Shown: positions 6,923-13,762 of the stretch, in pieces
How positions within the stretch are numbered: the stretch's first letter is position 1
How the letters are laid out: every line of letters begins with the position of its first letter
From: a virus
Taxonomy: Duplodnaviria; Heunggongvirae; Uroviricota; Caudoviricetes
Length of the DNA: 44,255 bases
IMG/VR virus record: IMGVR_UViG_2690316062_000005
Reading direction: 5' to 3' (one strand)
Notes under the pieces: generated by a model
What the model was told of the DNA's origin: nothing
The model's database searches: none
Seen by the model: the letters and a program-made list of their open reading frames with translations, nothing else
Translations under genes and position numbers: made by a program

Positions 6923-7216
6923 ATGAAATCAGTAACTAAGCCATGTCCTATTTGTGGTGAAGATTCTTTGTCTTTTAACCAGACAAATCAGTTGGTTAAC
7001 ATCAAAGTAAAACCACCAACTATTCGTGAAGTTCCATCAGTGGTTTACGTTTGCGATACTCACGGATGGTTTTCACTTTCAGAACAGATAAACAGACTCG
7101 TCACATCTAATGACGACCCTGCGGCTAAGCAAAAACTGGCTGTTATTGTCAAAGAGCGATATGTGCCGGAACAGGATCAGCCGTTAGCCCTGAAACCTAT
7201 TGAGTCGCTCGCATAA
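6923..7216 (+). CDS. Small zinc-finger protein (YgiT/MqsA-type zinc-ribbon-like)
   Basis: 97 aa; AAGGA RBS 8 nt upstream; CPICG...(about 30 aa)...CDTHG arrangement; on opposite strand to the surrounding leftward early operon. Confidence 0.45.
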   Translation: MKSVTKPCPICGEDSLSFNQTNQLVNIKVKPPTIREVPSVVYVCDTHGWFSLSEQINRLVTSNDDPAAKQKLAVIVKERYVPEQDQPLALKPIESLA

Positions 7217-7466
7217 GGTCTTTTCGGCTCTCGCTGCGATATCCCAGGCGGTACATTTTCACGTAGGCTTTGCCGCGAGGAATGCCGCCTGTTTTGTTGA
7301 ATCTCTGCTGGGCGCGGCGATGGTGTTTTGCTTCAGGGCTGTTTGAACCTTTCCCGCCATTCGATCGAGAACTTGGGAGTTGCATTGGCTTTTGGCGTGA
7401 ATAGAATTTACGTGCCCAGCATGCTCCAAAGCCGATCATGCCTGTTTTCTTCGTATTACCTTTCAT
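7197..7466 (-). CDS. Small basic protein; candidate N-like antiterminator (first gene downstream of putative pL)
   Basis: 89 aa, rich in Arg/Lys; first ORF transcribed leftward from the putative pL; assignment is by position and composition only. Confidence 0.3.
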   Translation of the reverse strand: MKGNTKKTGMIGFGACWARKFYSRQKPMQLPSSRSNGGKGSNSPEAKHHRRAQQRFNKTGGIPRGKAYVKMYRLGYRSESRKDLMRATQ

Positions 7467-7537: not shown

Positions 7538-7590
7538 ATGGGGTGATGATAGCTAAGGCGATTTATTTTATCAATCGCTTAAACGATAAT
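7538..7590 (-). promoter_or_regulatory. Putative pL: -35 TTGATA / -10 TATCAT (minus strand, 17-bp spacer) with overlapping operator-like site
   Basis: Minus-strand hexamers at 7569-7574 and 7546-7551; ATCGCTTAAACGAT (7574-7587) resembles the ATCGC-N4-GCGAT operators at the cI/cro switch. Confidence 0.3.
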
Positions 7591-7911
7591 ATTGTGATTT
7601 TGCCGATTATTATTTGATTTATAAAGTGATTTATTTTTGTATGAGATGCGTGATATGCTCAAAAAAACACCAGGCGGGGATATTGATATGGGTTTAGGAA
7701 TGGATATGTCACGTGATGAGCTGCTGGAAGATCGCGCTGCTTTCATGGCTGGCGAGATTGGCGGTGCAGTTGTCGAGTAGATAATCAACGGTGTGGTGAT
7801 AAGTCGAGATGCGATAGTAGATAGCTTGGAGACTAAGCGTCGCGCGGTTGGAAATGTGATTCACAAAGGAGTGTTGTGGGATGTCACTGCTATGGTGAGA
7901 AAAGGAATATG

Positions 7912-7930
7912 AAAACCGGCATAATGCCGG
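7912..7930 (-). terminator. Intrinsic terminator ending the cI immunity operon
   Basis: CCGGC-ATAAT-GCCGG hairpin (7916-7930) directly after the stop of the 210-aa gene, followed on the minus strand by a U-run (AAAA at 7912-7915 on plus). Confidence 0.5.
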
Positions 7931-7931
7931 T

Positions 7932-8564
7932 TTACTTTGATTTTTCCTGTTGGTGAAGTACTCGTGGAGTAGTTGGTTCTTGAGGTAATTGGATGATAAC
8001 AGGTTGCTGCGCTACTGGTTGAACTACGGGCGGATCACTCTTCAAGGCAGAAACAAGACTAGGTAATGCAACGACAACCGCAATGATAACGCCAAAAATA
8101 GCAAGCCTAGTGGAAATACCTGATTGAATACCGCCAATCGCAGTGTTTATTCCTGTAATTTGCCCTTGTATACCTTCGAATTTGCCATTGATGGCTTTTA
8201 CATCCCCATCAACGCTATCCATTTTCCCTTCAATTTTAGAAGAAATAGAGCTAATAGATGAATTGAGCGATGCCAGCTGAACGTTCATATTCTCGCGTGA
8301 CAAAGCCATTTCAGCTCTAATCGAAGATGCAATGGACTCCATCTCCGCCTTATTGGCAGCTAGAAGTGCTTGCATTTCTTCACGGCTAACTGATGACATT
8401 TCATTTCCCCCATCAGTTTCATTAGCTTCATCTGTTGATTTGATAAAGTTAGTATACATTTCTTCTTTATCGACGCGTAGTCTGTTTTGAACATTGGGGT
8501 ACAGGTCATCTTTATCAATGCCAGAACCGCAGTCTGGGACAGCTTTGAGAGATGGGCCCATCAC
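7932..8564 (-). CDS. Coiled-coil protein with C-terminal transmembrane anchor (unknown function)
   Basis: 210 aa; strong AAGGAG RBS; helical repeat-rich middle; hydrophobic segment LAIFGVIIAVVVALPSLVSAL near C-terminus then Pro/Gln-rich tail; start overlaps stop of upstream gene. Confidence 0.6.
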   Translation of the reverse strand: MMGPSLKAVPDCGSGIDKDDLYPNVQNRLRVDKEEMYTNFIKSTDEANETDGGNEMSSVSREEMQALLAANKAEMESIASSIRAEMALSRENMNVQLASLNSSISSISSKIEGKMDSVDGDVKAINGKFEGIQGQITGINTAIGGIQSGISTRLAIFGVIIAVVVALPSLVSALKSDPPVVQPVAQQPVIIQLPQEPTTPRVLHQQEKSK

Positions 8565-8923
8565 TTCCCATCCTCTCCTTGATCTTCTTTTCTTTTATTA
8601 ATCAGTGTCCTGGCTTTTTTATAAGAAAAAAGCAGTACATGTGCGCAGTGATCACACGTGATTCGAAATAGTGGCATACCGCCAGGATATGTCACAGCAC
8701 TATCAGTATCAGGTTTGTATTGTGCATAACTAAGTGTTTCGATCACATGATGTTTTGGCTGATTTTCTTCTACATCAAGATCAAAGGCACCAACTACAGA
8801 CCATGACTGGTTCCCGCAGATTTGGCAAGTTATTGGTTTTTTGAATGAATTTATGAAATCAATGAACTCATCCGCTGTGATAATCTCGGAGTTTGCTTCA
8901 CTATGAAATAATTCCGATTTCAT
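8561..8923 (-). CDS. Zinc-ribbon protein (unknown function)
   Basis: Start moved to internal ATG (MKSELFH...) with AAGGA RBS; CQIC ... CDHC pair; 120 aa; 44 bp downstream of cI on the same strand. Confidence 0.55.
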   Translation of the reverse strand: MKSELFHSEANSEIITADEFIDFINSFKKPITCQICGNQSWSVVGAFDLDVEENQPKHHVIETLSYAQYKPDTDSAVTYPGGMPLFRITCDHCAHVLLFSYKKARTLINKRKEDQGEDGK

Positions 8924-8967
8924 AATTATGATCCTTTTCTGGGCCAAAGTAGATAAAAAGTACAGTT

Positions 8968-9651
8968 TTACAATCGGTTATACTTTATTGATTCATGAAT
9001 CAATGCCTTACCCATTACGTAGAGTTGATCCTGATTACCTTCGTTAATGTACCACTTCTCATAAGCTGAGTTATCAGACAAAACTGCCAACCTATCGCCC
9101 TGCATCTGCAAGCGCTTCACATGGAAATGTTGTCCGAAAACGAACGCATAAACACCGTCGACCTTGAAGTTTCTTACAGAAATATCGAAAAACAATCTGT
9201 CACCAGACTGTATAGTTGGACACATGCTGTCGCCATCGACCGTCATTACTTTTACGTCTTCCTGAGAACGATTTCCGAAGAGTGAACGAGCGTGTTCGGT
9301 TGTGAACTCAATGGCGTGTAGAACCTCAACAAACTCAGAAATCATGAAAGAACCTGGCCCCGCGCTAAATGTCAGGTCAAGTACGTCAACTCTGAATATG
9401 TTTGAGTCTTTTTTTGTCGCGGTAATGGGAGGCGGTAGCTGGCCATCGTTACGCATCGGTCCGGATCCCGTGGAAAGCCATTCAGGGCGAACATTGAGAA
9501 CAGAAGCTATCTCGACCGTTTTTCTTGAGCTTGATGCACCATTTAGCAGCTTGTTAACACTTGACTGTGCCATGCCAACTGCCTTAGCTAGCTTGCCCTG
9601 TGTATAACCCGCCTCATTCATTGCGCGATCTAATCGCTCAGAAAAACTCAT
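8968..9651 (-). CDS. cI: CI-like prophage repressor (HTH + S24/LexA-type autopeptidase domain)
   Basis: Start set at MSFSERLDRAMNEAGYTQGKLAKAVG (HTH); C-terminal GDSM (Ser) and HVKRL (Lys) dyad of S24 peptidases; divergent from cro with operators between. Confidence 0.85.
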   Translation of the reverse strand: MSFSERLDRAMNEAGYTQGKLAKAVGMAQSSVNKLLNGASSSRKTVEIASVLNVRPEWLSTGSGPMRNDGQLPPPITATKKDSNIFRVDVLDLTFSAGPGSFMISEFVEVLHAIEFTTEHARSLFGNRSQEDVKVMTVDGDSMCPTIQSGDRLFFDISVRNFKVDGVYAFVFGQHFHVKRLQMQGDRLAVLSDNSAYEKWYINEGNQDQLYVMGKALIHESIKYNRL

Positions 9652-9679
9652 TAAAGATACCCCCCTAATAACCTTCATA

Positions 9680-9760
9680 AATATTATCGCCACAGCGATT
9701 AATAAGCAAAAAATCGCATAGGCGATTGACATTCGTTAAAGCGATAAACATAATCAACCT
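9680..9760. promoter_or_regulatory. Immunity switch: two 14-bp palindromic operators with divergent pRM / pR promoters
   Basis: ATCGCCACAGCGAT (9686-9699) and ATCGCATAGGCGAT (9713-9726); pR -35 TTGACA (9726-9731) and -10 CATAAT (9749-9754), 17-bp spacer; pRM on minus strand -35 TTGCTT (9704-9709) and -10 TAATAT (9681-9686), 17-bp spacer. Confidence 0.55.
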
Positions 9761-9781
9761 AAATTGATAGAAGGAGCGATT

Positions 9782-10012
9782 ATGAAAAACCCTGCTGTAG
9801 AAAAAGCGATTGCAATCGCCGGTAGTCAGAAAGAGCTAGCGAAGCGATGTGGTAAGGCCCAATCCACGGTCTGTGACTGGTTAAATGGGAAAAAACAAAT
9901 CTCCCCGATCCATGTTCCTGTTTTGGTAAAGGCAAGCGAAGGACAGATTCAAGCTCATGAATTCCGTCCCGACCTTCCTGAATTGTTTCCGCATCCACAT
10001 TCAGCCGCCTGA
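9782..10012 (+). CDS. cro: Cro-like HTH regulator
   Basis: 76 aa from ATG with AGGAG RBS; HTH-like segment GSQKELAKRCGKAQSTVCDWLNG; divergent from cI. Confidence 0.6.
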   Translation: MKNPAVEKAIAIAGSQKELAKRCGKAQSTVCDWLNGKKQISPIHVPVLVKASEGQIQAHEFRPDLPELFPHPHSAA

Positions 10013-13111: not shown

Positions 13112-13557
13112 GCAACATCGACAAACAGGCGCTGCGCCTAACAGCAGAAAAGGCAAAAGATAACTTCATGCCGAACTTCATGGTACCAACTCGCGATTTA
13201 CTGGCGCTGCTGGATGAGCTGGAAGCCGCAGAGAAGCGCATAGCAGAACTTGAGGGGGGCGCATTCAATCCCGCAATTCTTGATGTGGTAGCCGAACGTC
13301 AGCGGCAACAGTCGGTTGAAGGATGGACTCCTGAACATGACAACGCATATCAAAATAGCGAATTAGCAGATGCAGCGGCTTGTTACGCAATTCATGCGCA
13401 CAACCAAGGTTTCTCCACTCCAGCACATTGGCCGTGGTCGCCTGATTGGTGGAAGCAATCAGGAGCACGCTGCGACTTGGTAAAAGCTGGCGCTCTTATT
13501 CTGGCAGAAATTGAACGCATTGACCGCGCCGCTGGCATTGGCGTGAAGGGGGAATGA
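13108..13557 (+). CDS. Hypothetical phage early protein
   Basis: 149 aa; N-terminal coiled-coil-like region; conserved-looking WPWSPDWWK segment; translationally coupled. Confidence 0.5.
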   Translation: MSNIDKQALRLTAEKAKDNFMPNFMVPTRDLLALLDELEAAEKRIAELEGGAFNPAILDVVAERQRQQSVEGWTPEHDNAYQNSELADAAACYAIHAHNQGFSTPAHWPWSPDWWKQSGARCDLVKAGALILAEIERIDRAAGIGVKGE

Positions 13558-13558
13558 G

Positions 13559-13762
13559 ATGTCAAAGTCACCAATGAAACTCATGCTACGGGCATGGAAC
13601 AAAGAGCTTAAAAATCCAGAATGGGGCATGGGCAATCGTAAACACCGCAAAGCTTGTGCTCGTGATTTTGCCGGAGCCAGCATAGAAACCGATGCTGATA
13701 TCCCTAACCAAGCCGAAGCAGATGACCGCCTGGCGGAAGAACTTACTTACTGGACGGACTAA
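13559..13762 (+). CDS. Hypothetical small protein
   Basis: 67 aa; GGGGGA RBS; in a tightly packed early gene string. Confidence 0.4.
   Translation: MSKSPMKLMLRAWNKELKNPEWGMGNRKHRKACARDFAGASIETDADIPNQAEADDRLAEELTYWTD

Follow-up and report, generated by a model that had tools for sequence, protein, structure and literature searches.

A recurrent pair of genes for a zinc-ribbon protein and a coiled-coil membrane protein behind the repressor of a Rac-like Escherichia coli prophage: a candidate phage exclusion cassette with exchangeable partners

The DNA considered here (IMG/VR record IMGVR_UViG_2690316062_000005; 44,255 nucleotides (nt), referred to in its full length as the window) is a lambdoid prophage of Escherichia coli that resembles Rac. 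Directly behind the cI-like repressor gene and on the same strand it carries two small open reading frames (ORFs), termed ORF A and ORF B, that encode a soluble zinc-ribbon protein and a coiled-coil protein with one transmembrane (TM) helix, respectively. The pair constitutes a self-contained moron (accessory) cassette found in temperate phages of Enterobacterales and is most likely directed against other phages. With regard to its mode of action, we tentatively consider the proteins as a sensor or adaptor and a membrane effector that are formed in the lysogen and lead to phage exclusion or abortive infection, i.e., as an analogue and not as a homologue of the lambda Rex system. The suggestion of superinfection exclusion or abortive infection is based on genomic position, protein architecture and precedent. 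The ORFs as such are not new to databases: sequences of HK244/HK542 entered them in 2007 and 2012, the proteins are covered by PHROG families and RefSeq carries them as hypothetical; the immunity regions of phages HK244 and HK542 were reportedly sequenced for the first time by Degnan et al. in 2007. What is new is that a recurrent and modular cassette of two genes, the partners in which can be exchanged, is recognized in classic prophage moron slots. An initial annotation, made from the nucleotide sequence alone, had described the pair behind cI and had missed that the cassette recurs, that it is modular and also present in tail modules, and that the zinc-ribbon partner can be exchanged.

Sequence comparison confirmed that both genes are real and under purifying selection. 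Relative to the 80–86% identical copy in a prophage of E. coli PT62 (locus L025), the ratio of nonsynonymous to synonymous substitution rates (dN/dS) amounts to 0.085 for ORF A and to 0.141 for ORF B, and these values, the invariant cysteines of ORF A and the existence of about 85 clusters of homologous ORF B proteins place the pair beyond chance. The ORF B clusters, which were formed from 5.8 billion proteins with an identity threshold of 90%, stem from Enterobacterales without exception and are labeled as hypothetical, mislabeled on account of a Baculo_PEP_C match or, in the case of distant Proteus and Providencia members, annotated as DUF1640. For ORF A, an exhaustive hidden Markov model search of 1.84 billion representatives yielded 14 relatives only. 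ORF B-like DNA was found in 63 of 5426 complete E. coli genomes (about 1%), in one copy each and always on the chromosome. In the phage collection, ORF B matched HK542 and HK244 solely, and it is essentially absent from plasmids (just two distant matches); tblastn with ORF A against the phage and plasmid collections returned no match, and a megablast search for near-identical phage genomes found none. The possibility that the ORFs arose by chance or are decaying remnants devoid of function would agree with the exclusively hypothetical RefSeq annotation and with the split state of some HK542-type copies in E. coli, and it is for all practical purposes excluded by the conservation data, namely the low dN/dS values, the invariance of the Cys ligands, the conserved synteny across the 85 clusters and the quality of the structural model obtained for ORF A. 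The split copies occur on many E. coli contigs as two fragments with an overlap around MDSAAGDLKAINGR, namely P0033 (128 amino acids (aa)) and P0096 (111 aa). The former by itself accounts for 49 sequences on 53 contigs, which suggests a widespread frameshifted or interrupted allele.

The initial annotation had proposed a zinc-ribbon protein followed by a coiled-coil protein with one C-terminal TM helix, and this architecture was confirmed by ORF calls, Kyte-Doolittle analysis and heptad analysis. ORF A matches phrog_4293, a family of unknown function, over its full length (E = 2.5e-33, residues 3–118), and it lacks a hydrophobic segment according to Kyte-Doolittle analysis. Its assignment to the zinc-ribbon class is based on two CxxC knuckles, C33xxC36 and C90xxC93, that are located at modeled beta-hairpin turns and have conserved putative metal ligands: in an alignment of 17 homologues, C33, C36, C90 and C93 are invariant and W41 is nearly so. 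An AlphaFold2 model built with 16 sequences reached a predicted local distance difference test score (pLDDT) of 85.7, after an earlier model based on five sequences (pLDDT 60.6) had been discarded as too poor. In this model, a short N-terminal helix, seven strands and a basic C-terminal helix (residues 101–117) are present; the first CxxC lies ahead of strand 41–44 and the second between strands 83–90 and 96–100, both at hairpin positions. Searches of Pfam, NCBIfam and PADLOC gave no match for ORF A, and Foldseek with the model returned nothing significant, either from the PDB (best E 0.89) or from BFVD (best E 0.16). Similarity to a known zinc-ribbon family or a solved fold was not found in these searches, and PDB sequence searches with family profiles of ORF A and ORF B gave nothing below E = 0.02. 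Two candidate identities were rejected: a Lar-type restriction alleviation zinc ribbon, for which there was no Pfam match and an insignificant BFVD match (E = 0.58), and an anti-sigma zinc-finger TM protein, since zinc ribbon and TM helix reside on separate proteins here and no matches were obtained.

ORF B is a full-length match to phrog_5820, likewise a family of unknown function (E = 1.4e-70, residues 8–208). The initial annotation had given its size as 210 aa; the protein is indeed present, and its length is 209 aa when counted from the ATG, the form used by RefSeq and by database cluster P0001, with the value of 210 including a GTG one codon upstream. A single strong hydrophobic segment extends from approximately residue 153 to 173 (Kyte-Doolittle mean 2.66). 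Since a signal peptide is absent and about 150 residues precede the only TM segment, ORF B is predicted to be tail-anchored with its N-terminus in the cytoplasm and a periplasmic tail of about 35 aa. Residues 58–150 follow one heptad register, in which 19 of 27 a/d positions are hydrophobic vs. 5–15 in the other registers. The last four heptads of the coil form a glycine-rich part, in which (residues 121–149) the 3,4 spacing is unbroken, the core consists of Ile, Gly occupies eight other positions and the end abuts the TM segment. An alignment of the family revealed four zones, i.e., a variable N-terminal region of about 55–100 aa (about 55 in ORF B), a conserved coil (SREELDAKLAANKAE...), a near-invariant stretch G-INTAI-G-QSGIS-L-F that enters the TM segment and has Gly, Gln and Ser residues that do not vary, and finally a tail of about 35 aa rich in Pro and Gln, where a QPxIIQVPQ-like motif is conserved that includes the invariant P188. 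Coiled-coil matches below threshold were noted to Baculo_PEP_C, NPV_P10 and DUF1664, and in PADLOC a coiled-coil stretch matched PbeC only (E = 0.019). In addition, residues 53–170, which span the coil and the hydrophobic segment, gave two independent sub-threshold matches to alpha-pore-forming toxins, one to the NCBIfam model MakE (E = 1.8e-4, 20.6 bits vs. a cut-off of 360) and one to the SmhB chain in the PDB (E = 0.099). ORF B was also considered as an i-spanin or a holin and rejected as such, as both topology and genomic module are wrong.

In all loci the membrane gene is preceded by a small soluble gene, with an overlap of 1–8 nt or a gap of at most 36 nt. At least three families, unrelated to one another, are represented among these upstream partners. 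Zinc-ribbon proteins related to ORF A (phrog_4293) are found in the window, in the PT62 prophage and in loci L021, L022 and L013. Beta-rich phrog_5893 proteins of about 144–172 aa occur in HK542/HK244, Klebsiella, Cedecea and Xenorhabdus, and the partners of 149–162 aa in Salmonella, Proteus and E. coli 2013C-3342 probably belong here as well. A family of 84–98 aa is present in Kosakonia, locus L016 and Arsenophonus and perhaps in Yersinia, where there is an extra TM gene. The N-termini (about 55 aa) of the ORF B family cluster by type of partner: [RS]LKV[VI]GGSDFxAEFDN accompanies phrog_5893 proteins, EVIPIxxKL the 84–98-aa proteins, and PSLKAVPDxGSGIDKDDLYP and related sequences the zinc-ribbon proteins. 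Distant zinc-ribbon homologues were also detected behind prophage repressors, where they are followed by two unrelated single-pass coiled-coil membrane proteins of 96 aa (Table 1). The topologies of these 96-aa proteins are opposite, one having a C-terminal TM helix and a weak XhlA match and the other an N-terminal TM helix; in locus L017 the repressor and zinc-ribbon genes are separated by a gene for a 32-aa YoaK-family protein. A PADLOC search with the alternative partners and the small TM proteins gave no meaningful match.

Genomic contexts were gathered by exact-protein look-ups and 16 distinct ones were compared; a scan of species-representative genomes with the ORF B profile returned two loci. 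The cassette follows a repressor with a helix-turn-helix (HTH) or HTH plus S24 domain on the same strand in 14 of the 16 contexts, i.e., in the window, HK542/HK244, Klebsiella, Kosakonia, Yersinia, Salmonella, Cedecea, Arsenophonus, Proteus, two metagenomic contigs, L021, E. coli PT62 and E. coli 2013C-3342. In the other two, L013 and Xenorhabdus L009, it is placed in the tail module directly after the tape-measure gene. These two tail-module loci are multi-moron islands that also contain genes for small lipoproteins, secreted proteins and TM proteins. A DUF3024 gene (E = 2.4e-31) separates the repressor from the pair in E. coli 2013C-3342, which shows that extra cargo can stack in the slot, and a separate SieB gene is located near the cassette in Proteus locus L023.

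Comparison of the window with the PT62 prophage provides a view on how the cassette moves. The two share 78.6% DNA identity from the terminator (position 7912) to the middle of cI (position 9368, roughly the junction of the HTH and S24 domains), and the N-terminal domains of the repressors as well as the remainder of the prophages differ. Based on the extent of this similarity, the exchanged block consists of the C-terminal domain of cI, ORF A, ORF B and the terminator. The divergence of ORF A is paralleled by that of ORF B (86/80% and 50/52% identity; three comparisons), which in terms of sequence identifies the two as co-evolving. The inclusion of the S24 half of cI in the block shared with a second prophage could be taken as an indication of a role inside the prophage, be it in the lysis-lysogeny switch, in induction or in the timing of lysis, or else as a toxin-antitoxin (TA)-like stabilizer with a membrane toxin restrained by the small protein encoded upstream. 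An arrangement with a small soluble gene first and a TGATG overlap with the membrane gene is compatible with type II TA operons, one of the distant partner-associated membrane proteins has the weak match to the lysis-associated XhlA, and according to a bioRxiv report RexA/RexB take part in the transition from lysogeny to lytic growth (10.1101/2021.04.19.439022). On the other hand, the cassette is found behind unrelated repressors (S24 cI-like, short HTH-only and the lambda-like repressor of HK542/HK244) and in tail modules, which argues against a specific interaction with one switch, and homology to known TA families was not detected with Pfam, PADLOC or NCBIfam. A role of this kind appears rather improbable.

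Taken together, partner swapping, co-variation of the N-terminus with the partner and exchange of the module as a block form a pattern that is characteristic of conflict systems, and the cassette is a self-contained two-component module the parts of which are shuffled. The same features bear on the proposal that the cassette is a moron that contributes to host fitness and is unrelated to phages, through stress tolerance, envelope physiology or virulence, comparable to lambda bor and lom or to tail-anchored coiled-coil proteins of the host. Genes outside defense do occur among the morons expressed in lysogens (PMC7067206), and a cytoplasmic coiled coil with a C-terminal TM helix is common to proteins of many functions, DUF1640/CCDC90-like proteins included. 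However, the rapid swapping of partners, the patchy frequency of about 1% in E. coli and the restriction to prophage hotspots fit conflict systems better, and neither a secretion signal nor a link to virulence loci was seen. We consider a contribution to host fitness to be improbable.

The organization of the region suggests when the pair would be expressed. The order on the minus strand is cI, ORF A (44 nt downstream of cI), ORF B and a hairpin. The stop codon of ORF A and the start codon of ORF B overlap in the sequence TGATG, upstream of which GGAGAGGA can be read, and both elements make translational coupling of the two genes plausible. On the minus strand, reading by eye gives a hairpin stem CCGGCA/TGCCGG that is followed by TTTTCATATT; the hairpin is likely a bidirectional intrinsic terminator that closes the cI operon in analogy to Timm, and the HK244 record annotates the equivalent Timm. 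Scanning of the minus strand from cI to the hairpin gave no promoter-like or terminator-like site except for one weak terminator-like match within cI. By analogy with rexAB and bstA, the pair most likely shares a transcript with the repressor gene and is expressed from the repressor promoter in the lysogen. The transcript comprising cI, ORF A and ORF B would start at a pRM-like candidate, and its weak –35 element is typical of activator-dependent maintenance promoters. Repeats of the ATCGC..GCGAT type flank the unit at 9680–9757 and at 7546–7593, and the inverted repeats I3, I5, I11 and I12 connect both sides. Because of these matching repeats, the pair is placed within the immunity region between the right and left operators (OR and OL), as cI-rexA-rexB is in lambda. 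The claims of the initial annotation that the genes lie behind cI on the same strand, end at a terminator and occupy the position of rexA-rexB are borne out by the 44-nt gap, the hairpin and the repeats on both sides, as well as by homologues of ORF B in the same slot in HK244 and HK542, and the TGATG overlap is in accordance with the translational coupling that it described.

The mechanism that we propose combines these elements. The partner would dock on the variable N-terminus of ORF B, at the far end of an oligomeric stalk, which with approximately 95 heptad residues would measure about 14 nm if fully extended. The partner would serve as the specificity or sensor subunit and recognize a component of an infecting phage. 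Upon recognition, ORF B would perturb the inner membrane, possibly by insertion of the Gly-rich, Ile-cored juxtamembrane heptads beside the TM helix such that a leak or pore is formed, and the infection would be aborted as has been proposed for RexA/RexB. A switch of the helix from the coiled coil to membrane insertion is compatible with the Ile-cored, Gly-rich heptads, the invariant Gly, Gln and Ser residues and the faint matches to MakE and SmhB. A further-reaching and rather doubtful extension would be a combinatorial immune system of prophages, in which phrog_5820 proteins provide a common pore or leak effector and interchangeable soluble sensors are mounted on its variable N-terminus, the zinc-ribbon sensor being also wired to other single-pass membrane proteins. 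With equally little confidence we envisage that the zinc-ribbon fold, phrog_5893 and the 84–98-aa family act as such combinatorial sensors and that the logic of Rex-like abortive infection is realized with unrelated and much smaller parts.

Several points weigh against an exclusion or abortive infection system of the proposed design. Neither protein matches the defense models of PADLOC-DB v2.0.0, and no characterized protein was matched. The pRM-like promoter stays below the threshold of the consensus scan and was read by eye only. Docking of the partner on the N-terminus of ORF B is suggested by sequence comparison across about a dozen contexts. The matches to MakE and SmhB are leads and not evidence of homology, and they may reflect composition only. 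Moreover, the conserved motif in the periplasmic tail is not obviously needed by a pore former that senses in the cytoplasm; such a conserved tail would suit a block of entry no less well. Tail modules, beside tape-measure genes, harbor two family members, and the entry-blocking HK97 moron gp15 lies in a place of that kind.

The main alternative is superinfection exclusion at the step of DNA entry, in which ORF B with its periplasmic tail would block the channel or the host factors used by phage DNA or tape-measure proteins, the soluble partner would stabilize or regulate ORF B and infected cells would survive. This variant is in accordance with the conservation of the QPxIIQVPQ-like consensus and of P188 behind the TM helix, with the two members that directly follow tape-measure genes among lipoprotein and secreted morons, and with the slot behind the repressor, which is typical of exclusion genes expressed in lysogens. 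It has to be set against the fact that about 150 of the 209 residues of ORF B and the whole partner are predicted to be cytoplasmic and just about 35 residues to be periplasmic, and for a simple block one would not expect a cytoplasmic partner that can be exchanged, together with a docking region that co-varies with it. Both the entry block and the regulatory task of the partner that it implies appear unlikely to us. A sensor or adaptor coupled to a membrane effector remains our tentative choice.

The positions of all features are compiled in Table 1. The stretch of the window from 7850 to 9800 is 99.9% identical to five of 5426 complete E. coli genomes. In one of them, strain 2018-10-1CC, the prophage adjoins kch and carries genes for an integrase, RecE/RecT and YdaS-like and YdaT-like proteins. 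In the window, the cro-like gene belongs to the YdaS family (YdaS_toxin/HTH_3), and the early-left region can be termed Rac-like as it encodes a very long RecE-family exonuclease with RecT and YdaE nearby. The first ORF after the pL-like promoter codes for an Arg/Lys-rich protein of 89 aa without a Pfam match, the place of which would suit an N-type antiterminator. A small gene that is convergent with ORF B and located between pL/OL and the terminator contains an in-frame TAG, and RefSeq notes the internal stop and lists it as a pseudogene. In the same place, L021 has an intact homologue encoding 67 aa, without Pfam match, and DNA similarity between the window and L021 covers 7712–8384, i.e., this convergent gene and the 3' part of ORF B. 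The small gene is probably not part of the cassette, because it is absent from the similarity with the PT62 copy. In the RefSeq-identical prophage L001, a tRNA-Ile gene and a frameshifted methyltransferase gene are present in the early-right region.

Table 1. Positions of the cassette and of other features (numbering of the window unless a locus is named)
Feature	Position	Strand	Remarks
ORF A, 120-aa soluble protein, predicted zinc ribbon, phrog_4293	8561-8923	-	ATG start; AAGGA Shine-Dalgarno sequence 8 nt upstream; proposed partner, sensor or adaptor
ORF B, 209 aa, predicted tail-anchored inner-membrane protein, phrog_5820	7932-8561	-	ATG start; proposed effector or anchor
GC-rich hairpin AAACCGGCA-TAA-TGCCGGTTT	7913-7933	.	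T-runs on both sides; overlaps ORF B stop codon; scored by scan on plus strand
cI-like prophage repressor, 227 aa, HTH_3 and Peptidase_S24	8968-9651	-	Pfam PF00717 E = 5e-17, PF01381 E = 8e-8; phrog_4 transcriptional repressor; RefSeq LexA family transcriptional regulator
Candidate pRM-like promoter	9681-9709	-	TTGCTT (9709-9704), 17 nt, TAATAT (9686-9681); read by eye
OR-like operator region between cI and cro-like gene	9680-9760	.	ATCGC..GCGAT palindromes 9686-9699 and 9712-9727 (reported as hairpins)
pR-like rightward promoter, strong	9726-9754		TTGACA-17-CATAAT; beside cro-like gene
OL-like operators and leftward pL-like promoter	7546-7600	-	TTGATA-17-TATCAT (7574..7546), promoter match 10/12; left border of immunity region
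Small gene convergent with ORF B	7706-7912	+	In-frame TAG at 7778-7780
Intact 67-aa homologue of the convergent gene	L021 3605-3808	-	
Arg/Lys-rich 89-aa ORF	7197-7466	-	
RecE-family exonuclease gene, 1129 aa	2835-6224	-	
tRNA-Ile gene	L001 17627-17718		Corresponds to about 13476-13567 of the window
Zinc-ribbon plus 96-aa membrane protein genes	L017/L018 3001-3832		
Zinc-ribbon plus 96-aa membrane protein genes	L019 442-1045		
Zinc-ribbon plus 96-aa membrane protein genes	L020 1617-2220		
Multi-moron island in tail module	L013 2006-4097		
Multi-moron island in tail module	L009 2930-4435		Xenorhabdus
DUF3024 gene	L026 4027-4368		E. coli 2013C-3342

In lambdoid phages, rexAB, the mechanism of which is still debated after 60 years, and BstA have their classic place between cI and pL. 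If the function proposed here is true, a second, unrelated pair of a soluble and a membrane protein occupies this slot, and the underlying logic has evolved more than once. With 120 and 209 aa and a specificity subunit that appears to be swapped in nature, the pair would offer a simpler system for studying how a cytoplasmic sensor switches a membrane effector, and a function would be assigned to three PHROG families and to the unexplained ORFs of HK244 and HK542. As HK542 is a cultured and sequenced phage, it is open to direct genetics. Should an anti-phage phenotype be absent, the strict association with repressors would still point to a membrane function linked to lysogeny.

The closest known systems include the pairs of HK542 (gp35 and its partner) and HK244 (HK24405-HK24404). 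Here, the membrane gene and its overlapping upstream partner directly follow the repressor gene and precede Timm, OL and pL, which is the position of rexAB in lambda. HK24404 and its HK542 counterpart are 70% identical to ORF B over 146 aa that cover coil, TM helix and tail; in contrast, the upstream partner (144 aa, phrog_5893) is unrelated to ORF A and the N-terminal approximately 55 aa of the membrane proteins differ. Searches of the accessible literature yielded no functional description of the proteins, no mention of their accessions and no match for a prophage zinc-ribbon plus TM system or for tail-anchored defense.

Similarities in architecture extend to two further groups. DUF1640/CCDC90-like proteins (PF07798) share the order of a coiled-coil stalk followed by a C-terminal TM helix, and weak precomputed PF07798 matches exist for the distant Proteus/Providencia members P0092–P0095, which NCBI names DUF1640. 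Unlike these, ORF B itself has no PF07798 match at E ≤ 1, and only one of 31 family members has one at E ≤ 0.01; the link is architectural and at best distant. ClyA-type tripartite toxins such as MakE and SmhB resemble ORF B in that long helices flank a hydrophobic membrane-inserting segment, and the weak local matches include the hydrophobic head of the toxins. They differ in being secreted proteins of about 350 aa, and with scores far below the cut-off they provide a mechanistic lead only.

With regard to genomic position, the interval between cI and N is known as a hotspot of mosaicism, in which both rexAB and bstA reside; the cI promoter drives transcription of bstA, and the location of bstA downstream of the repressor is conserved across homologues (PMC8585504, PMC7067206). 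BstA, an abortive infection protein of the Salmonella prophage BTP1, is similar to the cassette in being encoded directly downstream of the prophage repressor. It works as a single protein at the sites where phage DNA is replicated and has a DNA-based self-immunity element, whereas two proteins are involved here, one of them anchored in the membrane, and the PADLOC and Pfam scans gave no sequence relationship to BstA. The identity of the pair as SieB was considered as well and rejected (BLASTP E = 0.94, no match to PF14163 in Pfam). The Rex-like system of mycobacteriophage Sbash, gp30/gp31, consists of a soluble protein expressed from the prophage and a small membrane protein encoded downstream, and it has been proposed to abort infection via membrane depolarization (PMC6426596). 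DUF4747 is common to Sbash gp30 and RexA, and four TM helices are present in gp31; the cassette has neither feature.

For RexA and RexB themselves, the initial annotation had noted a lack of resemblance, and this was substantiated by BLASTP of ORF A and ORF B (best E 0.81 vs. RexA, E ≥ 13 vs. RexB), by Pfam, which at E ≤ 1 gave no Rex, DUF4747 or SieB match for either protein, and by PADLOC, which gave no match to Rex. Scans of PHROGs and NCBIfam likewise spoke against homology to Rex, SieB or known defense proteins. The proteins are also built differently: RexA comprises 279 aa and contains DUF4747 in contrast to the 120 aa of ORF A, and RexB has 144 aa and four predicted TM domains (PMC6426596) in contrast to the 209 aa, long cytoplasmic coil and single C-terminal TM helix of ORF B. 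What lambda rexAB and the cassette have in common is the slot and the orientation, after cI, between OR and OL and ending at a terminator before pL, and the organization as a two-gene unit in which a soluble protein is followed by a membrane protein.

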